From a virus (Duplodnaviria > Heunggongvirae > Uroviricota > Caudoviricetes): a DNA stretch of 13,974 bases. The notes under the pieces are model-generated. The model had not been told where the DNA came from, did no database searches, and was given only the letters and a program-made list of their open reading frames with translations. The position numbers were made by a program, and so were the translations under genes. Of this stretch, positions 1-13,974 are shown in pieces. The stretch lies in IMG/VR virus record IMGVR_UViG_2531839579_000009; one strand, given 5' to 3'. Numbering within the stretch: position 1 is the stretch's first letter; every line of letters starts with the position of its first letter.

Positions 1-1577
1 CGTGGAAAATTGTCCGTAAAGGCAGGCATCAAGTTCCTGCTCCGACATGCCTGCGGGCAAAGGCCACGAAAGGCCAGCTCTCCGAAAGCGCACGAACATA
101 CTACAAACTGTTGATTTTGGTACACCCAGGCGACGCCCGGCCACAACCCGGGGTAAATGTTCTTCAAAGTGAAGACGTAAAGCTTCAGTGATCCAGGTCC
201 GGTGTTTCATACGATAGTGTCCATTAAAAATGATGGACATTATTTTTGTAGAGCCGGAGGAAACAGACCAGACGGTTTAAATGAGCCGGTTACAAAGCCA
301 GTGAGGCGGCGTATCTACTTTGCCCGCACTGCAGCGGCATTATCACTGCGGAGAAAAAGCGTGAGCTCAATAGTGCAGGAGTCTGGTTGCGTGAAGGGCA
401 GGTCATTGATCGTAACGGCAACGTTTCCGGTGAACCGCGCCGCTCCCGTATCGCCAGTTTCTGGATGGAAGGGCCAGCTGCTGCGTATCAGACCTGGGCG
501 CAACTGGTTTACAAATTACTGACTGCAGAACAGGAGTATGAAGCGACAGGAAGCGAAGAAACACTCAGGGCGGTTATCAACACCGACTGGGGATTGCCTT
601 ATCTTCCTCGTGCCAGCATGGAGCAACGAAAAAGTGAATTGCTTGAGCAGCGGGCAGAGCCAGTTCCTTCCCGCAGTGTGCCGGATGGCGTTAATTTCCT
701 TGTGGCGACAGTGGATGTGCAGGCGGGACGTCATCGCCGTTTTGTGGTTCAGGTAACGGGCTATGGCAGCCGTGGCGAACGCTGGATTATTGATCGTTAC
801 AACATCACGCAGTCATTGCGCGGTGACAGCGACGGGGAGAGCCAGCGAATTGATCCGGCCAGCTATCCGGAAGACTGGGATGTCCTGCTGACGGATGTTT
901 TTCATAAAAGCTGGCCGCTGGCCTCCGATCCTTCTCAACAAATGCGACTGATGGCAATGGCGGTGGACTCCGGCGGTGAAGACGGGGTCACTGATAATGC
1001 CTATAAATTCTGGCGTCGTTGCCGTCGTGATGGCCTTGGTAAACGTATTTACCTGTTTAAGGGCGACAGCATCCGGCGCGCAAAACTGATCACCCGTACA
1101 TTCCCTGATAACACCGGACGAACGGGCCGACGGGCGCAGGCCGCAGGTGATGTGCCGCTCTGGCTTCTTCAGACGGATGCCCTGAAAGATCGGGTGAATA
1201 ACGCGTTATGGCGTGACTCGCCAGGTCCCGGCTATGTGCATTTCCCTGACTGGCTGGGGAGCTGGTTTTACGACGAACTGACGTATGAAGAGCGGAGCAG
1301 TGACGGGAAATGGAGTAAGCCGGGTCGCGGTGCCAACGAAGCTTTTGACCTGATGGTGTATGCCGAGGCTCTGGTCATTCTGCATGGATACGAAAAGATC
1401 CGCTGGCCGGATGCACCGGAGTGGGCGAGCCGGGAAACCTGGCTGGAGTGTGTCCCGGACAGTACCGAACCGTCACCCTCACCGGAACCGGTATCCACGC
1501 CTGTTAAAAAACAAAAACGGAAGAAAACAGTAACTGACGATGTTAACCCCTGGCTGACTTCCGGAGGATGGTTATGA
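1..1577 (+). CDS. A: Terminase large subunit (lambda gpA-like), 5'-partial at window edge. Intact frame only from about 286 to 1577; homologous upstream segments lie in other frames.
   Basis: ORF 387..1577 translation (…WLREGQVIDRNG…FLVATVDVQAGRHRRFVVQVTGYG…WIIDRYNI…) aligns with the C-terminal half of lambda gpA as I recall it. A CPHC motif is in the same frame at about 313-324, upstream of the first ATG. Frames 0 and 1 are both open in different parts of 1-300. Confidence 0.8.
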
Positions 1578-1786: not shown

Positions 1787-3292
1787 TGGCAATTCTTGAT
1801 GATGTGATTGGCGTTTTTTCACCAGGATGGAAAGCGGCAAGGCTGCGTTCCCGTGCGGTGATCCAGGCTTATGAGGCCGTAAAAACGACGCGGACACACA
1901 AAGCCCGACGGGAGAACAGAACTGCCGACCAGTTAAGCCAGTACGGGGCCGTGTCGTTACGTGAGCAGGCCCGTTACCTTGATAACAACCACGATCTGGT
2001 TATTGGTGTATTTGACAAGCTGGAAGAACGGGTGGTGGGGAAAAACGGGATTATTGTCGAGCCACATCCGGTATTACGCAATGGGGCCATTGCCCGTGAT
2101 CTGGCAGCGGAGATACGTACCCGATGGAGTGAATGGTCTGTCAGCCGGAGTCACCGGGCAGTTTACCCGTCCGATGCTGGAACGTCTGATGCTGCGTACC
2201 TGGCTGCGCGATGGTGAGGTGTTTGCCCAGATGGTTTCCGGGCGCATAAACAGCCTGACGCCTTCTGCCGGTGTTCATTTCTGGCTGGAGGCGCTCGAGC
2301 CGGACTTTATTCCCATGACCAGTGATGAGAGCAACAGGCTGAATCAGGGCGTGTTTGTTGATGACTGGGGGCGTCCCGAAAAATATCTGGTGTATAAAAG
2401 TCGTCCTGTATCCGGACGGCAGATGGAAACCAAAGAAGTGGATGCAGAGCGAATGCTGCATCTTAAATTTGTTCGCCGTCTGCACCAGATGCGCGGGACG
2501 TCTTTATTGTCCGGTGTGCTGATCCGCCTCAGCGCCCTGAAAGAGTATGAAGATTCTGAGCTGACTGCAGCAAGGGTCGCCGCTGCTCTGGGGATGTACA
2601 TCCGCAAAGGCGACGGACAGAGCTATGAAACGGATGGTAATTACAGCAAGGAGAAGGAACGCGAGCTTACCATTCAGCCAGGCATTATTTACGATGATCT
2701 GAAACCCGGCGAAGAAATCGGAATGGTGAAGTCGGATCGCCCCAATCCTAACCTTGAAACTTTTCGTAATGCTCAGTTGCGTGCCGTGGCGGCGGGCAGT
2801 CGTCTGAGTTTTTCCAGTACAGCGCGCAACTATAACGGCACTTACAGCGCCCAGCGTCAGGAGCTGGTTGAATCCACTGATGGCTACCTGATCCTGCAGG
2901 ACTGGTTTATTGGTGCCGTCACCCGCCCGATGTATCGTGCATGGCTGAAACAGGCTGTGGCATCCGGTGTTATCAGGCTACCCCGCGATCTTGACCGTTC
3001 TTCACTGTATACCGCGGTGTATTCCGGACCAGTGATGCCGTGGATTGACCCTGTTAAGGAGGCTGAGGCCTGGAAAATCCAGATTCGTGGTGGAGCGGCG
3101 ACAGAATCAGACTGGGTACGTGCTGGTGGTCGTAATCCGGATGATGTCAAACGTCGGCGCAAGGCCGAAATTGATGAAAACCGCAAGCTGGACCTAGTAT
3201 TTGATACCGATCCGGCCAGTGATAAAGGAGGCAGTAGTGCCGCAACGAAACGACAGGAGCCGCAGCACACCGACGACCAGTCCGAAGATTAA
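1786..3292 (+). pseudogene. Phage portal protein, reading frame broken near 2140-2155 in this sequence
   Basis: ORFs 1714..2217 (frame 1) and 1961..3292 (frame 2) together form one portal-sized protein of about 500 aa. The switch occurs within agccggagtcaccggg. Position directly after gpW and before the prohead protease fits a portal. Confidence 0.8.
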
Positions 3293-3305
3293 TTCCTGGT
3301 TCAGG

Positions 3306-5264
3306 ATGCAGGCTGGTCACCAGAGTGACGCGGATATTTATATTTATGACGAGATTGGTTTCTGGGGTGTTACAGCGAAGCAGTTTATCAGTGATCTGAA
3401 TGCACTGGGCGATATCACCCACATTAATCTCCATATTAATTCACCGGGTGGCGATGTCTTTGAAGGCATCGCCATTTTTAATGCGCTGAAAACACATGGT
3501 GCGTCCATTACCGTTTATGTCGACGGTGTGGCGGCGTCAATGGCGTCGGTCATTGCGATGGTGGGAAATCCGGTCATTATGCCGGAAAACACCTTCATGA
3601 TGATTCATAAACCATTTGGCTTTACGGGCGGTGATGCGGAGGACATGCGCACCTATGCCGACCTGCTCGATAAAGTTGAGGCGGTTCTGTTACCCGCTTA
3701 TGCACAGAAAACCGGGAAAACCACCGATGAAATTGCTGCCATGCTGGCGGATGAGACCTGGATGTCCGGTGCCGAATGTCTGGCACAGGGATTTGCTGAT
3801 CAGGTGACGCCAGCCGTTAAGGCAATGGCATGTATTCAGTCAAAACGTACAGAGGAATTTAAAAAGATGCCGGAATCCATTCGAAACATGATTACTCCGC
3901 CACGCAACAGTGCTCCACGCGTACAGGATGATGAACCTGCAGCCTCCCGGACGCCAGTGCAGGCAGCAGCACCCGTGGTGGATGAAAACAGTATCCGTGC
4001 GCAGGTACTGGCAGAGCAAAAAGCGCGTGTAAACGGTATTAATGATCTGTTTGCCATGTTTGGCGGGCGTTATCAGACGCTGCAGGCTCAGTGTCTTGCC
4101 GATCCTGAATGTTCGCTGGAACAGGCCCGCGAAAAGCTGTTGAACGAGATGGGGCGCGAGTCCACGCCATCCAATAAAAATACCCCGGCTCATATTTATG
4201 CCGGTAACGGTAATTTTGTGGGGGACGGGATCCGCCAGGCGCTGATGGCGCGTGCCGGATTTGAAAAAACCGAACGTGATAATGTCTACAACGGGATGAC
4301 CCTGCGTGAATATGCCCGTATGTCACTGACTGAACGGGGTATTGGGGTTTCCAGTTATAACCCGATGCAGATGGTCGGTGCGGCGTTCACACACAGTACG
4401 TCTGACTTCGGTAATATTCTGCTGGATGTTGCGAACAAAGCCATTCTGCAGGGCTGGGAAGATGCCCCTGAAACCTATGAACAGTGGACGCGGAAAGGTC
4501 AGTTGTCTGATTTTAAAATTGCCCATCGTGTGGGTATGGGGGGCTTCAGTGCTCTGCGTCAGGTGCGTGAAGGGGCGGAATATAAATACGTCACCACCGG
4601 AGATAAACAGGCCACTATTGCACTGGCGACCTATGGCGAGCTGTTCAGTATCACCCGTCAGGCCATTATCAATGATGATCTGAATATGCTGACCGATGTC
4701 CCGATGAAACTGGGCCGTGCGGCGAAATCCACTATTGCCGATCTGGTTTATGCCATTCTGACGTCTAACCCGAAAATCTCCACAGATAATGTAAGTCTGT
4801 TCGATAAAGCGAAACATGCAAACGTACTGGAGAGCGCTGCAATGGACGTGGCATCGCTGGATAAAGCCCGCCAGTTGATGCGCGTTCAGAAAGAGGGGGA
4901 GCGTCATCTGAATATTCGTCCTGCGTTCGTACTGGTACCGACGGCGATGGAGTCTGTTGCTAACCAGGTCATTCGCTCCTCAAGTGTCAAGGGGGCTGAC
5001 ATTAACGCCGGTATTATTAACCCGGTGAAAGATTTTGCGACCGTTATTGCAGAGCCTCGTCTTGATGATAACAGCCTGACCACCTTCTACCTGGCTGCGT
5101 CAAAAGGCTCCGATACGATTGAAGTGGCTTATCTCAACGGTGTGGATACGCCATATATTGATCAGATGGAGGGCTTCAGTGTGGATGGCGTGACAACGAA
5201 AGTGCGTATTGACGCCGGTGTCGCGCCAGTTGATCACCGCGGTCTGGTGAAATGTACGGCGTAA
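3306..5264 (+). CDS. Fused prohead protease (ClpP/S14-like) - linker/scaffold-like region - major capsid protein (Mu gpT-like), single 652-aa ORF
   Basis: The N-terminal ~170 aa (…INSPGGDVFEGIAIFNALK…VDGVAASMASVIAMVG…) looks like a ClpP-family serine protease core. The middle is a low-complexity Q/A/E-rich segment. The C-terminal ~350 aa resembles Mu-like major head subunits. ATG 3306 is in frame, just after the portal stop at 3290-3292. No internal stop. Confidence 0.8.
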   Translation: MQAGHQSDADIYIYDEIGFWGVTAKQFISDLNALGDITHINLHINSPGGDVFEGIAIFNALKTHGASITVYVDGVAASMASVIAMVGNPVIMPENTFMMIHKPFGFTGGDAEDMRTYADLLDKVEAVLLPAYAQKTGKTTDEIAAMLADETWMSGAECLAQGFADQVTPAVKAMACIQSKRTEEFKKMPESIRNMITPPRNSAPRVQDDEPAASRTPVQAAAPVVDENSIRAQVLAEQKARVNGINDLFAMFGGRYQTLQAQCLADPECSLEQAREKLLNEMGRESTPSNKNTPAHIYAGNGNFVGDGIRQALMARAGFEKTERDNVYNGMTLREYARMSLTERGIGVSSYNPMQMVGAAFTHSTSDFGNILLDVANKAILQGWEDAPETYEQWTRKGQLSDFKIAHRVGMGGFSALRQVREGAEYKYVTTGDKQATIALATYGELFSITRQAIINDDLNMLTDVPMKLGRAAKSTIADLVYAILTSNPKISTDNVSLFDKAKHANVLESAAMDVASLDKARQLMRVQKEGERHLNIRPAFVLVPTAMESVANQVIRSSSVKGADINAGIINPVKDFATVIAEPRLDDNSLTTFYLAASKGSDTIEVAYLNGVDTPYIDQMEGFSVDGVTTKVRIDAGVAPVDHRGLVKCTA

Positions 5265-5953: not shown

Positions 5954-6535
5954 ATGAAGGGGCTTGAGAATGCTATCCGCAATCTGAACAGCCTTGATAC
6001 CCGTATGGTGCCACAGGCCAGCGCATGGGCGATAAACCGTGTGGCACAGAAAGCGGTCTCGGTCGCCACCCGGCAGGTTGCCGGGAATACCGTTGCGGGA
6101 GATAACCAGGTGAAAGGGATCCCCCTGAAACTGGTACGTCAGCGTGTCCGGGTGTTTAAAGCCAGTCCGTCAGGAAAAATGACGGCCAGGATCCGCGTTA
6201 ACCGGGGCAATCTGCCCACCATCAAGCTGGGGACAGCCCGGGTCAGACTGGCCCGGCGTGGTGGAAAACTGCAGTACCGTGGCAGTATTCAGCAACTGGC
6301 GAATGGCCGCTGGCATGTTCTGAGGCGTCTTCCTGAAGCGCGTTTTGCAACAGGGCATGTGATGCGGCGTATTGATGGCAAAAATCGTTACCCCATTGAT
6401 GTGGTGAAAGTCCCGCTGTCCGGACCGCTGACACAAGCATTTGAAGATGCCCGCGACCGCATTATTGCTGCGGAAATGCCGAAACAGCTGGGGTATGCAC
6501 TGAAACAACAACTGAGGTTATGGCTGACCCGATGA
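5954..6535 (+). CDS. Z: Minor tail protein Z (tail completion)
   Basis: 193 aa. MKGLENAIRNLNSL…NGRWHV…KNRYPIDVVK…LGYAL…QLR matches lambda gpZ (192 aa) along its length. AGAGG sits 6 nt upstream. Confidence 0.9.
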   Translation: MKGLENAIRNLNSLDTRMVPQASAWAINRVAQKAVSVATRQVAGNTVAGDNQVKGIPLKLVRQRVRVFKASPSGKMTARIRVNRGNLPTIKLGTARVRLARRGGKLQYRGSIQQLANGRWHVLRRLPEARFATGHVMRRIDGKNRYPIDVVKVPLSGPLTQAFEDARDRIIAAEMPKQLGYALKQQLRLWLTR

Positions 6536-6941: not shown

Positions 6942-7681
6942 ATGACCACACCAAATCCACTGGCAAAAACGAAAGGTGCGGGAACGACGTTCTGGATGTA
7001 ACCGGCAAGGCGATGCGTTTGCGAACCCTTTTCGGACACTGACTGGTGCGTCTTGCGATGGTGAAGGATCTGCAACCTGGCGAAATGACCGCTGATGCAG
7101 AAGATGACACTTATCTCGATGATGAAGATGCAGACTGGAAAACGACAACCCAGGGGCAGAAATCCGTCGGTGATACTTCGGCGACGCTGGCCTGGCGTCC
7201 GGGGGACAGCGGGCAGAAAAAACTGGTTCAGTTGTTCGACTCCGGTGAAGTCTGCGCGTTTCGTATCAAATATCCCAACGGTACTGTTGATGTTTTCCGT
7301 GGCTGGCTGAGTTCACTGGGTAAAACCATTGCCTCAAAAGACGTGATGACCCGCACCGTGAAAATCAGCGGTGTGGGGCGTCCGTATCTGGCAGAGGAAG
7401 GCACTGAAACCGTGGGCGTTACCGGGCTGACGGTGGCACCGGCATCTGCCAGTGTAAAAGTGGGAGCAACCACCACGCTGACCTTTACAGTAAAACCTGA
7501 CGGAGCCAGTGACAAAGCGATCAGTGTGCATTCGACAGATCCACAGACTGCCACGGTGACCCTGAACGGGCTTGTGGCCACGGTGAAAGGCGTGAAGCAG
7601 GGCAGTGTCAGCATTGTGGGCATGACTTCTGACGGCGATTTTGTGGCCGTGGCTGCGGTGGCTGTCAGCGCCGCAGGTTAA
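6942..7681 (+). pseudogene. V: Major tail tube protein V with C-terminal Ig-like domain; four frame breaks within 6998-7049
   Basis: AGGAGG at 6931-6936, ATG 6942. MTTPNPLAKTKGAGTTFWM runs into a stop at 6999. Homology to lambda gpV then continues in frame 2, frame 1, frame 0 and back to frame 2 from 7049 to the stop at 7679-7681. Confidence 0.85.
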
Positions 7682-7741: not shown

Positions 7742-8128
7742 ATGTTTCTGAAACAGGGCTCGTTTAATTATGAAAAGCAGTCCGTGGTGCTCAGTGAGCT
7801 GTCCGGGCTGCAGAGAATTGAATATCTGGCGTTTGTTCAGCAGCGAACGGCAAAGTTTGATGCCGAAGAGGGAGAACTGCCGGAGGCTGAACGACAGATT
7901 GCTTTTCTGCGGATGGGGATGGATATCAATGCCTGGCTGGTTTCCCGCTCACTGTGGAATGCGGATCAGTCTAAGGATGTAGAGACGCTTTGCGCATCCG
8001 TTATTACAACATGGTCGTATGATGCCCTGGGTGCGGGGGCGGAGATGGTTCTGTCGCTGAGCGGTATGGGGGCCATTGATAATGCCGGGGATGATGAGCA
8101 TGAGGCGCTGACGCCGGAAAAGTCCTGA
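7742..8128 (+). CDS. G: Tail assembly chaperone G
   Basis: MFLKQGSFNYEKQSVVLSELSGLQRIEYLA… matches the lambda gpG N-terminus (MFLKTESFEHNGVTVTLSELSALQRIEHLA…). GGAG sits 6 nt upstream of ATG 7742. Stop at 8126-8128. Confidence 0.85.
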   Translation: MFLKQGSFNYEKQSVVLSELSGLQRIEYLAFVQQRTAKFDAEEGELPEAERQIAFLRMGMDINAWLVSRSLWNADQSKDVETLCASVITTWSYDALGAGAEMVLSLSGMGAIDNAGDDEHEALTPEKS

Positions 8129-8465: not shown

Positions 8466-11400
8466 TTTGGGGATTGATGCGGCAGAGTTTAAAAATGAAA
8501 TTCCCCGTATCAAAAACCTTCTGAATGGTGCCGCCAGCGATGCAGAACGGTCTTCTGCCCGTATGCAGCGTTTTATGGAGCGTCAGACTCAGGCCGCCCG
8601 GCAGACAACGCAGGCGGCTTCTTCGGCTGCAACAGCCGCCTCCGTCCATGCGCAGACGGTGGAGAAGAACGCACAGGCTCATGAACGCATGGCCCGCGAG
8701 GTGGAGAAAACCCGCCAGCGCATGGAGGCGCTGAGCCAGAAAATGCGCGATGAACAGGCGCAGGCCATGGCTCTGGCGGAGGCTCAGGATAAAGCGGCTG
8801 CTGCGTTTTATCGTCAGATTGACAGTGTGAAACAGGCCAGTGCGGGGCTGCAGGAATTACAGCGTATTCAGCAGCAGATCCGACAGGCCAGAAACAGTGG
8901 CGGGATTGGTCAGCAGGATTATCTGGCGCTGATTTCTGAGGTTACGGCGAAAACCCGTGTTCTTACACAGGCTGAGGAAGAGGCTACCCGACAGAAAGTG
9001 GCGTTTATCCGTCAGCTTAAAGAGCAGGCAACCCGCCAGAATCTTTCTTCTTCTGAGTTGCTTCGTGCTAAGGCTGCCCAGCTGGGGGTAAGCAGTGCTG
9101 CAGAAGTGTATATCCGCAAAATGGAGCAGGCAGGAAAAGCCACGCATTCGCTGGGTCTGAAAAGTGCAGCGGCCCGTCAGGAGATAGGCGTTCTGATAGG
9201 TGAACTGGCCCGCGGCAATTTAGGTGCGCTGAGGGGATCCGGAATAACGCTGGCTAACCGTGCCGGGTGGATAGACACATTGATGTCACCGAAAGGCATG
9301 ATGCTTGGCGGGGTTATTGGCGGTATTGCCGCGGCTGTCTATGGTCTGGGTAAAGCCTGGTATGACGGTCAGAAGGAGGGGGAAGAATTTAACCGCCAGC
9401 TGTCGCTGACGGGGCATTATGCCGGAGTCACTGCCGGGCAGCTGTGGACGCTCAGTCGTGCTATTTCCGGGAATGGTATCACGCAACATGCTGCAGCCGG
9501 TGCGCTGGCTCAGGTGGTGGGGAGTGGTGCATTTCGTGGAAACGATATCGGTATGGTGGCGAGAGTGCCGCACAGATGGAGCGATCGGTTGGCCAGTCGG
9601 TCAGCGATACCATAAGTCAGTTTAAGCGGCTGAAGGATGATCCTGTAAATGCCGCGAAGGCTCTGGACAATGAGCTGCATTTTCTTACTGCCACTCAGCT
9701 TGAGCAGATACGCGTCCTTGGGGAGCAGGGGCGGTCCAGTGATGCTGCACGGATAGCCATGTCTGCACTGGCAGAGGAAACCGGTCGGCGTACTGCGGAT
9801 ATTGATAATAACCTCAATGCGCTTGGCAGTACGCTGAAGTATCTGTCTGATTTGTGGAGTCGTTTCTGGGATGCGGCCATGAATATTGGTCGTGAAGACT
9901 CGCTGGATGAACAGATTGCCGCTTTACAGGAGAAAGTGTCGCGGGCGAAAAGACTCCCCTGGACGGCATCATCTTCTCAGGTTGAATACGATCAGCAGCG
10001 TCTTAACGATCTTCAGGAGAAAAAACGCCAGAAGGATTTGCAGGATGCAAAAGAGCAGGCAGAGCGGAATTATCAGGAGCAACAGAAACGCCGTAATGCT
10101 GAAAATGCTGCACTGAACCGGATGAATGAAACGGAAGCAGCACGACATCAGCGTGAAATTGCGCGTATTAATGCCATGCAGTACGCCGATCAGGCTGTCA
10201 GGGATGCGGCGATACAACGTGAAAATGAACGTTACGAGAAAGCCCTGGCATCCGGTAAGAAAAAAACACGCGAAACCCGTAATGATGAGGCCACCCGGTT
10301 ATTGCTGCAGTACAGTCAGCAACAGGCACAGGTGGAAGGACAGATTGCTGCTGCAGACAGTCAGCAGGCATTGCCACTGACAGGATGACAGAAGCGCATA
10401 AACAGCTTCTGGCTCTGCAGCAGCGCATCAGCGACCTGGACGGGAAAAAACTGACGGCAGATGAAAAGAGTGTGCTGGCCCGTAAAGATGAACTGATTCA
10501 GGCACTGACGCTGCTGGATGTAAAACAGCAGGAGCTTCAGAAACAGACGGCACTCAACGATCTGAAGAAAAAAACAATTCAGCTGACCAGTCAACTGGCT
10601 GAAGAAGAGCGCGCTCAGCGTCAGCAACATGACCTGGATATCGCCACGGTGGGTATGGGTGATCAGCAGCGGCAGCGATATCAGGTACAACTGAGTCTTC
10701 GCCAGAAATACCAGCAACAGCTGGAGCAGTTGAGGCGGGATAGTGAGCAGAAAGGAACATATAACACGGATGACTACAGAAAGGCCGAGCAGGCGCTGAC
10801 GGAGAGCCTGAACCGACAACTGAATGAGAATCGCCGTTACTGGCAACAGCTTGAAGTTGCTCAGGGTGACTGGAAAAACGGAGTCCTGCGTGCACTCCAG
10901 AATGTCACTGAGGAAGCGGATAACACGGCAGAAACAGCAGAACAGGTGTTCTCGTCAGCCTTCAGCAACATGGGAAATGGCCTGGCAACTTTTGTCACTA
11001 CCGGCAAACTCAATTTCAAATCCTTCACCTCTTCTGTGCTGTCAGATATGGCGAAAATCCTGGCGCAGATAGCTTTAATGAAAGCGGTAAAAGGTATTGC
11101 TTCCGCGCTGCCTTTTGATCTTGTAGCCAATGCTGATGGCGGTGTTTATCAGTCGGCTGATTTGAGTCGCTACAGTGGCACGGTGGTTAACCGTCCGACG
11201 TTTTTTGCTTTTGCAAAAGGCGCGGGTGTGATGGGGGAAGCGGGACCTGAAGCCATTCTGCCATTGCGTCGTGGTGCTGACGGTAAGCTGGGGGTTGTGG
11301 CGGATATTGGGGGTTCAGGTATGGCGATGTTTGCCCCGCAGTACAACATCGAGATCAATAACGATGGCACGAACGGGCAGATAGGTCCGGCTGCCCTGAA

Positions 11401-11491
11401 GGCGGTTTATGACCTCGGGAAAAAAGCGGCAGCGGACTTTATGCAACAGCAGGCCCGTGATGGTGGTCGGTTAAGTGGAGCATATCGGTAA
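8437..11491 (+). pseudogene. H: Tail tape measure protein H (about 1018 aa) with two frame breaks (about 9560 and 10384)
   Basis: Start MDQIANLVIDLGIDAAEFK matches the lambda gpH N-terminus. Three consecutive ORFs (8137..9615, 9444..10388, 10385..11491) in frames 1, 0 and 2 each continue the homology. C-terminus …NNDGTNGQIGPAALKAVYDLGKKAAADFMQQQARDGGRLSGAYR matches the lambda gpH end. Confidence 0.85.
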
Positions 11492-11820
11492 TGGAGACGT
11501 TTCACTGGAAAGTGCGCCCGGATATGAATGTGGTATCAGAGCCGAAAGTGGTGACAGTGAAGCTGGGCGATGGTTATGAACAGCGTCGTGCGGCGGGACT
11601 GAATAACCAGTTGTCGACTTACAGCGTGACGATACGTGTTCGTAAATGTGACCACCCATCTTTAAAAGCCTTTCTGGAACGGCACGGTGGCGTCCGTGCA
11701 TTTCAGTGGACGCCACCTTATGACTGGAAACCGATCAGGGTGGTTTGTCGTAAATGGTCGGCAAGCGTGGGGGCGCTGTGGGTAACCATAACGGCAGATT
11801 TTGAACAGGTCGTGGCATAG
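11491..11820 (+). CDS. M: Minor tail protein M
   Basis: 109 aa. METFHWKVRPDMNV…GDGYEQRRAAGLN…TYSV…FLERHGG…WTPPYDW…FEQVV matches lambda gpM (109 aa) end to end. Start overlaps the H stop (TAATG). Confidence 0.9.
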   Translation: METFHWKVRPDMNVVSEPKVVTVKLGDGYEQRRAAGLNNQLSTYSVTIRVRKCDHPSLKAFLERHGGVRAFQWTPPYDWKPIRVVCRKWSASVGALWVTITADFEQVVA

Positions 11821-11829
11821 GAGGCTCTG

Positions 11830-12495
11830 ATGCAGGATATTCCACAGGAAACACATCATGAGACGACACGCCTCACTCAGTCAGCCCAGGTGGTGCTCTG
11901 GGAAATCGATCTGACAGAGGTCGGTGGTGAACGTTATTTTTTCTGTAATGAGCAGAACGAAAAAGGTGAGCCGGTCACCTGGCAGGGGCGGCAGTATCAG
12001 GCATACCCCATTCAGGGGACGGGATTTGAACTGAACGGAAGGGCAGTGCTCCGCCACCTGACGGTTCTAACCTGACGGATGGTCACCGGGATGGCGGAAG
12101 ACTGCAGAGTCTGGTCGGCGGAACGGTGGTCGGCGTAAGGTTTACGCCCGTTTTCTGGATGCGGTGAACTTCGTCAACGGAAACAGAGCCGATCCGGAGC
12201 AGGAGGTGATCAGCCGCTGGCGCATGAGCAGTGAGCGAACTGAGGCGGTAGTGCCTCTTTGTCTTCCACCCGACGAAACGGATGGGCTGTTTTTCCGGGC
12301 GATCATGCTGGCCAACACCTGCACCTGGACCTATCGCGGGAGAGTGCGGTTATCGGTCCGGCGTCGCGGATGAATATGACCAGCCACGTCCGATATCACG
12401 AAGGATAAATGCAGCAAATGCCTGAGGGCTGTAAGTTTCGCAATAACGTCGGCAACTTTGGCGGCTTCCTTTCCATTAACAAACTTTCGCAGTAA
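11830..12495 (+). pseudogene. L: Minor tail protein L, multiply frame-broken between about 12039 and 12430
   Basis: AGGAGG sits 5 nt upstream. The first 69 aa (MQDI…VVLWEIDLTEVGGERYFFCNEQNEKGEPVTWQGRQYQ…ELNG) are near-identical to lambda gpL. After 12039, exact lambda-like peptides appear in alternating frames, ending in-frame with …GFLSINKLSQ and a stop at 12493-12495. Confidence 0.85.
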
Positions 12496-12499
12496 TCCC

Positions 12500-13226
12500 A
12501 TGACAAGACAGAATCAGCGATTCTGGCGCACGCCCGGCGATGTGCGCCAGCGGAGTCGTGCGGCTTCGTGGTGAGAACGCCGGAGGGGAAAGATATTTTC
12601 CCTGCGTGAATATCTCCGGTGAGCCGGAGGCGTATTTCCGGATGTCGCCGGAGGACTGGCTGCAGGCAGAATGCAGGGTGAGATTGTGGCGCTGGTCCAC
12701 AGCCACCCCGGTGGTCTGCCCTGGCTGAGTGAGGCGACCGGCGGCTGCAGGTGCAGAGTGATTTGCCGTGGTGGCTGGTCTGCCGGGGGCGATTCATAAT
12801 TCCGCTGTGTGCCGCATCTCACCGGGCGGCGCTTTGAGCACGGGGTGACGGACTGTTACACGCTGTTCCGGGAGCTTACATCTGGCGGGATTGAGATGCC
12901 GGATTTTCATCGCGGGGATACTGGTGGCGTCACGGTCAGAATCTCTATCTGGATAATCTGGAGGCCACAGGGCTGTATCAGGTGCCGTTGTCAGCGGCGC
13001 AGCCGGGCGATGTGCTGCTGTGCTGTTTTGGTTCATCGGTGCCGAATCATGCCGCCATTTACTGGGGACGGGAGCTGCTGCACCATATTCCTGAACAACT
13101 GAGAAACGAGAGAGGTATACCGACAAATGGCAGCGACGCACACACTCCCTCTGGCGTCACCGGGATGGCACGCATCTGCCTTTACGGGGATTTCAACGAT
13201 TTGGCCGCCGCATCGACCTTCGGTGA
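12500..13226 (+). pseudogene. K: Tail tip assembly protein K (JAMM/MPN plus NlpC/P60-type domains), multiply frame-broken
   Basis: MTRQNQRFWR… start. Lambda gpK-like peptides (CGFVVR; GGERYFPCVNIS…EAYFRMSPEDWLQAE; EIVALVHSHPGGLPWLSEA; DRRLQVQSDLPWWLVCRG; PHLTGRRFEHGVTDCYTLFR; GIEMPDFHR; NLYLDNLEATGLYQVPLSAAQPGDVLLCCFGSSVPNHAAIY…ELLHHIPEQL) are spread over all three frames. Confidence 0.8.
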
Positions 13227-13764
13227 AAACGGGGCGAAGCCATCCGGGCGCTGGCCATGCAGTCCCGGCGTTTCGTCAGAACTGAGCGACGGCTGGTATC
13301 AGGTACGCATTGCCGGGCGTGATGCAGGTGAAACCGAATTGTCTGCCCGTCTTAATGAGCCGCTGGCAAATGGTGCCGTGATCCAATCGTGCCGCGTCTG
13401 GCGGGAGCTAAAAGTGGCGGTGTGTTTCAGGTGGTGCTGGGGGCGGCGTTGATTGCGGTGGCATGGTGGAACCCTGTGGGCTGGCTGGGTGCCGCGGCTG
13501 TATCGGGCATGTATGCGGCAGGGGCCAGTATGATCCTGGGCGGGTGGCGCAGATGCTGGCACCGAAAGCCAGGACGCCACGGCAGCCAGTACAGATAACG
13601 GCAAACAGAACACCTATTTTTCCTCACTGGATAACATGGTTGCTCAGGGCAATGTTTTGCCTGTTCTGTACGGGGAAATGCGTGTGGGGTCGCGGGTGGT
13701 TTCTCAGGAGATCAGCACGGCAGACGAAGGGGACGGTGGTCAGGTTGTGGTGATTGGTCGCTGA
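13127..13764 (+). pseudogene. I: Tail tip assembly protein I, multiply frame-broken; overlaps the 3' end of K
   Basis: MAATHTLPLASPG start. MARICLYGD, QRFGRRIDLR, VKTG…PAFRQ, LSDGWYQVRIAGRD, AGAKSGGVFQVVLGAA, VAQMLAPKARTPR and DNGKQNTYFSSLDNMVAQGNVLPVLYGEMRVGSRVVSQEISTADEGDGGQVVVIGR match lambda gpI but in alternating frames. Stop at 13762-13764. Confidence 0.8.
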
Positions 13765-13782
13765 TGCAAAATGTTTTATGTG

Positions 13783-13806
13783 AAACCGCCTCCGGGCGGT
13801 TTTATC
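13783..13806 (+). terminator. Hairpin (AAACCGCC-TCCG-GGCGGTTT) followed by a T-run in the I-J intergenic region; terminator-like or attenuating structure
   Basis: 8-bp stem read from the sequence, followed by TTTTATCGTTT. Lies between the I stop (13764) and the J start (13825). Confidence 0.4.
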
Positions 13807-13824
13807 GTTTATGGAGCATGACGA

Positions 13825-13974
13825 ATGGGTAAAGGCAGCAGTAAGGGGCATACCCCGCGCGAAGCAAAGGACAACCTGAAGTCCACGCAGTTGCTGAGTG
13901 TGATCGATGCCATCAGCGAAGGGCCGGTTGAAGGTCCGGTGGATGGATTAAAAAGCGTGCTGCTGAACAGAACG
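13825..13974 (+). CDS. J: Tail tip / host specificity protein J, N-terminal 50 codons only (3'-partial, runs off the window)
   Basis: MGKGSSKGHTPREAKDNLKSTQLLSVIDAISEGPVEGPVDGLKSVLLN is essentially identical to the lambda gpJ N-terminus as I recall it. GGAG sits 8 nt upstream. Confidence 0.9.
   Translation, partial: MGKGSSKGHTPREAKDNLKSTQLLSVIDAISEGPVEGPVDGLKSVLLNRT

Follow-up and report, generated by a model that had tools for sequence, protein, structure and literature searches.

The contig and its gene content

The stretch of DNA analysed here (13,974 nucleotides, hereafter the window) is the entire draft contig AQBU01000050.1 of Escherichia coli p0305293.11 (assembly GCA_000358575.2), to which it was traced through its 81-aa truncated L product, known at NCBI as ENG52097.1, Escherichia coli p0305293.11. 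It holds the morphogenesis block of a lambdoid prophage, in the order IS66 end, truncated terminase, portal, protease-capsid fusion, head-tail genes, Z, U, V, G, T, H, M, L, K, I and the start of J. The features on which the analysis bears are as follows.

1-293, minus strand: end of an IS66-family element (ISCro1-like), with the 5' part of tnpA to about 240; one end of the contig lies in it, and it disrupts the terminase gene
387-1577, plus strand: terminase large-subunit gene, N-terminus missing, truncated by the IS
2145-2150, plus strand: site in the portal gene where two single bases are missing, each from codon position 3, so that the gene is split into ORFs of 143 and 367 aa
7001-7047, plus strand: site in the major tail gene V with four single-base deletions like those of L, K and I
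11491-11820, plus strand: tail-tip gene M, intact, 109 aa
11830-12495, plus strand: tail-tip gene L, first 69 codons clean; from 12039 to 12427, 33 bases lost in 30 deletion events
12500-13226, plus strand: tail-tip gene K (JAMM/MPN and NlpC/P60 peptidase), 17 single-base deletions
13127-13764, plus strand: tail-tip gene I, nine deletion events, the last at 13577; 13577-13764 clean
13825-13974, plus strand: host-specificity gene J, first 50 codons; the contig ends inside this gene, which is repeated among prophages

Both contig ends thus lie in repeats, the IS element and J, as is expected of a contig broken at repeats. As the reference for all alignments we used an intact prophage of the enterotoxigenic E. 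coli (ETEC) strain 120899 (NZ_CP025916.1, locus L001), whose tnpA, at positions 1063-1740 of the locus, corresponds to the window up to 240. In genomes that do not have the IS66 element, the match to the window begins at 294. The truncated terminase is annotated in L001 as 'terminase gpA endonuclease subunit, incomplete', and the stored gene call at 387-1577 of the window matches PF20454. The same IS66 junction was found in several complete ETEC genomes from human stool, namely 120899, 103605, 204446, 504237 and ETEC-2265, so that this defective prophage is common to a lineage.

The ETEC isolates of the P0305293 series, which the IGS genome centre sequenced, come from cases of cholera-like diarrhoea in Bangladesh (2011; PMC4309559). 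In the ETEC project several colonies were sequenced per patient, with Illumina HiSeq2000 paired ends assembled by Celera Assembler at a coverage of >200x (PMC4462620). Judging by the strain-naming scheme and by PMC4309559, isolate p0305293.11 would belong to the published set of 208 genomes. Its draft assembly dates from 2013 and was made from short reads.

The order M-L-K-I-J of the tail-tip module is the same in the window as in the phages mEp460, cdtI and PhiR47_1, and the M/L/K/I/J region aligns with theirs at 100% query coverage and 95-96% DNA identity, gaps counted. The reference locus L001 has a DNA identity of 98.8% with PhiR47_1, 96-99% with the mEp460/cdtI/PhiR47_1 type, and 92.7% with lambda. 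An initial annotation of this DNA, made from the sequence alone, had recognized lambda gpL, gpK and gpI peptides in the window; that the peptides are lambdoid is correct, but their closest type is that of mEp460/cdtI/PhiR47_1 and not lambda itself.

Frame breaks in L, K and I

In a global alignment the window (13,974 bases) and L001 (14,051 bases), which share the IS66/terminase junction, are 98.2% identical, and differ by 161 substitutions, 75 deletions and 4 insertions in the window. The indels are far from evenly distributed, as 53 of the 79 events fall within 12035-13700, a region that makes up 11.9% of the window (binomial p = 2e-30); the initial annotation had placed the densest frame breaks of the contig in exactly these genes. 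All 53 are deletions of 1-2 nt, by which 57 bases are gone, with zero insertions and only 17 substitutions in the same region. They span 12039 to 13577 and comprise 30 events in L, 17 in K and 9 in I, three of which are counted twice in the K/I overlap. It had also been stated that the reading frame changes roughly every 50-150 bp; the breaks do run along all of L-K-I, but they are much closer together than that, with a median spacing of 12 bp and a mean of 30 bp, and with spacings of 2-54 bp within 12039-12427. On the other hand, the claim that the first 69 codons of L (11830-12038) and the whole of M are clean holds, since the first break is at 12039 and M is an intact 109-aa ORF, which differs from the M protein of L001 by a single E>D replacement and is widespread (the exact protein occurs in 13,632 indexed blocks of the collection).

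The consequence is that uninterrupted frames for L (232 aa), K (247 aa) and I (about 215 aa) are absent from the window. Past codon 69 of L the longest clean piece measures 62 codons, and no open frame in L, K and I exceeds 156 codons. Pfam Phage_tail_L matches two separate L fragments, of 81 and 69 aa; PF14464 and PF00877 are found on K, and PF06805 on I, of intact relatives. The JAMM motif of K (HSHPGGLPWLSEAD, at 12698-12738) is, as the initial annotation had noted, cut before its Asp, in that a T, the third base of an Ala codon, is missing at 12736, so that HSHPGGLPWLSEA is read in one frame and DRRLQVQSDLPWWLVCRG in another. The motif HSHPGGLPWLSEAD, as well as the protein sequences of L, K and I, can be recovered by restoring the 57 missing bases.

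The gene calls stored for the broken K/I region include the short ORFs 12476-12700 (minus strand), 12671-12799, 13476-13598 and 13636-13764 (all plus strand). None has a Pfam match and one is antisense; they are by-products of the frame breaks. Of the broken products, at least those of 81 and 156 aa have entries among the NCBI proteins.

Position of the deletions relative to variable sites

Most single-letter deletions are not homopolymer errors, as 53 of the 69 found in the whole-window alignment to L001 occurred in runs of length 1. When the 46 single-base deletions that are unambiguous, i.e. that lie in one gene only, were assigned to codon positions in L, K and I, 37 of them were seen to strike position 3 (p = 7e-11). 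This bias calls for a direct test of whether the lost bases are synonymous sites that differ among lambdoid copies. Polymorphism was therefore scored on 20 independent intact copies of L-K-I, the window being excluded; ten of them belong to phages or prophages in the collections, and the other ten are loci that encode the exact M protein of the window. Among the deleted positions 46 of 57 (81%) turned out to be polymorphic, compared with 322 of the 1935 kept ones (17%), which corresponds to an odds ratio of 21 (p = 4e-25). When the deletions were slid by 1-3 bases as a control, only 7-17 of the 57 positions were polymorphic. The remaining 11 deleted positions are invariant among the 20 references.

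Individual alleles reproduce much of this pattern. In the 3' half of L the L015/L019-type allele, carried for example by a prophage of ATCC 25922, differs from L001 at 22 sites, 18 of which are deleted bases in the window, and this allele is a candidate for a second haplotype. Of the 33 deleted positions in the 3' half of L, 23-25 are sites at which alleles of the lambda/434 type do not have the base of L001, and when the alignment was inspected by eye, almost all gaps in 12039-12427 were seen to coincide with a difference in lambda or 434. In 11781-12035, just upstream of the first break, lambda-type L and L001 disagree at 30 of 255 sites; the window has the base of L001 at all 30, and no deletion occurs in this interval. 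The pattern looks as if reads of other copies had been recruited only from about 12036 onward.

Copies of the module in other genomes and in a sibling isolate

A search of 5,426 complete E. coli genomes located 14,828 L-K-I places in 4,390 of them, the copy number per genome having a median of 3 and a maximum of 15; strain 120899, the closest complete relative, has 6. The corresponding median for a Z-U-V query is 1 copy per genome, a difference that fits the concentration of errors in L-K-I. The annotation's remark that L, K and I are the genes most often near-identical between co-resident lambdoid prophages accords with these counts, and they, together with one sibling isolate described below, suggest that second and third copies may reside in isolate p0305293.11.

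The broken version, on the other hand, has no match above 96.2% among the 14,828 places in the 5,426 complete genomes, and the top matches listed are each annotated with intact L, K and I genes. The two broken products that were looked up, an L fragment of 81 aa and an ORF of 156 aa (12982-13452), are each confined to one contig among about 15 billion proteins. A scan of genome, viral and metagenome contig collections for a 55-nt stretch over five of the deletions gave no exact match; it was the truncated L protein that led to the source contig.

Only one other contig encodes a 675-aa protease-capsid protein identical to that of the window, namely APZZ01000035.1 (locus L025). It comes from p0305293.14, an E. 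coli isolate that is a sibling of p0305293.11 within one patient series. In this contig the genes for the portal (502 aa), U, V, T, H, M, L (232 aa), K (247 aa) and I (215 aa) are all open. Its terminase is intact and it differs from the window at 92 sites of the window's first kilobase, for which reasons it seems to represent a second prophage of this lineage, related to the first. Alternative bases are present in it where the window has lost one: at all four deleted sites of V (7001, 7009, 7032 and 7047, with T/C, C/G, G/A and T/C in L001/L025), and at 10 of the 14 deleted sites in 13001-13974, which covers the end of K, I and the start of J. The L025 contig spans, in positions 1-16915, the lysis genes, the intact terminase and a morphogenesis block ending in J, in which only Z is split. 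Different genes are therefore damaged in different sibling assemblies, while the prophage set is probably identical.

Merged prophage copies as the probable source of the deletions

We consider it highly likely that the frame breaks in L, K and I are consensus errors of the draft assembly, which arose from the merging of similar prophage copies, and not mutations. Across the sequences compared, the deletions fall on sites that vary between copies, no other record has them, and relatives carry several copies of the locus in which they lie. The suspicion of a collapsed repeat, which the initial annotation had only implied, is supported by this combination, together with products known from single contigs and the intact genes of the sibling.

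The mechanism that we propose is as follows. The strain would probably carry several lambdoid prophages that are about 90-99% identical in L-K-I and, to a lesser degree, in portal, U, V and H. An overlap-layout-consensus assembler would stack the reads of these copies into one contig, and at the bases in which the copies differ the consensus step would emit no base rather than choose one, so that one nucleotide would be lost per inter-copy SNP, or two where SNPs are adjacent. A likely route is that variant bases were placed in separate gap-padded columns, which were then called as gaps. A majority-vote consensus normally picks a base and not a gap, which counts against this step of the proposal. 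A merged-copy consensus would account at once for the deletion-only spectrum in L-K-I, the loss of one base per SNP, the independence from homopolymers, the bias to codon position 3 and the unique products, and the clean stretches would be those in which the copies are identical or too divergent to be co-assembled.

None of the known alleles explains the deleted sites in full, and since in addition 11 of the 57 sites are invariant among the references, more than two copies or alleles outside the present sample are needed. A hypothetical second haplotype, obtained by filling in the commonest alternative bases, has a best match of 95.7% among the complete E. coli genomes, a value that neither supports nor refutes merging, because the reconstruction is crude, the placement of gaps is ambiguous and probably more than two copies are mixed.

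Errors of this kind have a precedent. It has been reported for Trypanosoma brucei that collapsing diverged alleles produces indel errors and apparent frameshifts (PMC8445201), which likewise lie at or near variant sites. That case concerns a diploid genome assembled from long reads, unlike the bacterial short-read assembly considered here. Compared with collapsed-allele cases, it is also unusual that the window drops essentially one base per SNP and that 12035-13700 contains deletions only.

Alternative explanations

A related account places the loss of bases after the assembly, in that ambiguity codes or gap characters at mixed positions would have been stripped before submission. Exactly one base is gone per variant site, and the deposited record consists of A, C, G and T only, as this account would have it. 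The stripping cannot be the work of the pipeline that supplied the window, as the contig in GenBank is just as long as the window and NCBI's own proteins ENG52097.1 and ENG52101.1 were already translated from the shortened sequence. We regard such post-processing as unlikely; it is in any case a variant of the explanation by merged copies, with mixed copies as the common cause.

Alternatively, the merging may have been the same and the second haplotype have come from another strain or phage in the DNA preparation, through a mixed culture or induced particles. Copies within a genome and copies between genomes are indistinguishable from sequence alone, and 2 of the 12 patients of the project yielded phylogenomically divergent ETEC isolates (PMC4462620). 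The isolates were, however, individual colonies picked from plates (PMC4462620), the 3-6 copies of L-K-I in a single genome of the relatives suffice without a second strain, and the window contig has its deletions only in prophage stretches of a kind that is usually repeated. A foreign source is, in our view, distinctly improbable.

Genuine decay deserves consideration since the terminase is cut by the IS66-family element, so that selection on the tail genes of this defective prophage could be relaxed, and real frameshifts could have accumulated in the tail-tip genes; portal, U, V and H have frame breaks as well. The window does resemble the cryptic lambdoid prophages of E. coli, known for their pseudogenes, in being defective, in carrying an inserted IS and in the disruption of several of its morphogenesis genes. 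Real decay of cryptic prophages, however, proceeds mostly by substitutions, larger deletions and IS insertions, and its indels have random codon positions and are inherited by related strains, none of which is true of the window. Neutral deletions would strike the codon positions equally and have no regard to variable sites, contrary to the 80% at position 3 and to the 81% at polymorphic sites against a background of 17%; nor would they be expected to outnumber substitutions by 53 to 17 without one insertion among them. Moreover, none of these genes is broken in the complete-genome prophages that share the IS66 junction, such as that of 120899, the broken products that were looked up are absent from relatives, and the genes of the sibling isolate are intact. 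We give genuine decay very little credence.

Just as improbable are random errors that have no relation to repeats and stem from a noisy platform or low coverage, for example homopolymer errors of 454 or long reads left unpolished. The excess of deletions over insertions in the whole window (75 to 4) does resemble some long-read consensus errors. Random errors, though, would be expected neither to prefer codon position 3 or polymorphic sites nor to cluster with 53 of 79 events in 12% of the contig, and the 53 of 69 single-letter deletions outside homopolymers argue against platform noise. So does the Illumina coverage of >200x given in the project paper (PMC4462620), which presumably applies to isolate.11 too.

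We also considered that the deletions might be real and stem from a novel process that removes one nucleotide per mismatch when diverged co-resident prophages recombine, e.g. through aberrant processing of heteroduplex DNA, which would leave frameshifts at former SNP positions. With an intact sibling isolate and no such allele in thousands of genomes contradicting it, this is barely credible. Programmed ribosomal frameshifting was rejected, as there are 53 shifts and not one conserved site, and as L, K and I are each an uninterrupted CDS in the relatives that were fetched; for the G-T slippery heptamer of lambda, GGGAAAG, the window has two matches, which is the chance level, and neither is at the G/T junction near 8128.

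Implications

The broken frames of L, K and I are thus attributed to the record and not to the phage. The breaks are almost certainly not biological, and the tail-tip genes of the prophage in the window are very probably intact. The contig provides a clean example of a short-read overlap-consensus assembly that turns SNPs between copies into one-base deletions, with spurious pseudogenes and database proteins, such as ENG52097.1 and ENG52101.1, as the consequence. It also provides a flag by which such contigs can be recognized without the reads, namely deletions only, located outside homopolymers and over-represented at third codon positions and at sites that vary among paralogous copies. Pseudogene counts, and calls of prophages as 'defective', that rest on draft ETEC genomes of the same generation should accordingly be taken with caution.

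Damage elsewhere in the contig

The whole contig is affected, at a lower density outside L-K-I. Single-base deletions of the same type are present at 2145-2150, 6580, 6627, 7001-7047, 8412, 9566 and 10355. By these, the portal is divided into pieces of 143 and 367 aa, U has 93 aa instead of 133 and V has 211 aa instead of 247; in addition, T is fused to the start of H and H is split into three ORFs. A different picture is seen in the tape-measure gene at 10973-10996, where two A deletions and two C insertions occur within 24 bp with no net change in length, which looks like a local scramble of the consensus rather than a simple loss of bases.

Z (5954-6535) retains an open frame of 193 aa, whose protein is found only in the window's contig. 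At 6230-6410 the gene is a patchwork of L012/L013-type and L001-type alleles; it does not have a 42-nt block that is present in three references, and at 6360-6377 it matches none of them. The Z of the window may be a chimeric consensus that stays in frame by chance, and its unique protein is perhaps another spurious database entry. Z of the sibling isolate is split into 121 and 57 aa. The many small indels of Z relative to L001 (6242-6376) are a different phenomenon, as for the most part they are noise from aligning two different alleles of Z.

At the 316 kept sites between 297 and 13960 at which L001 and L025 differ, the window agrees with L001 or L025 at all but one, with one of the two at 204 sites and with the other at 111. 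The agreement alternates in blocks, L001-like at 297-1000 and 11001-12000 and L025-like at 3001-4000 and 9001-10000, which reflects either natural mosaicism or a chimeric walk of the assembler through two prophages.
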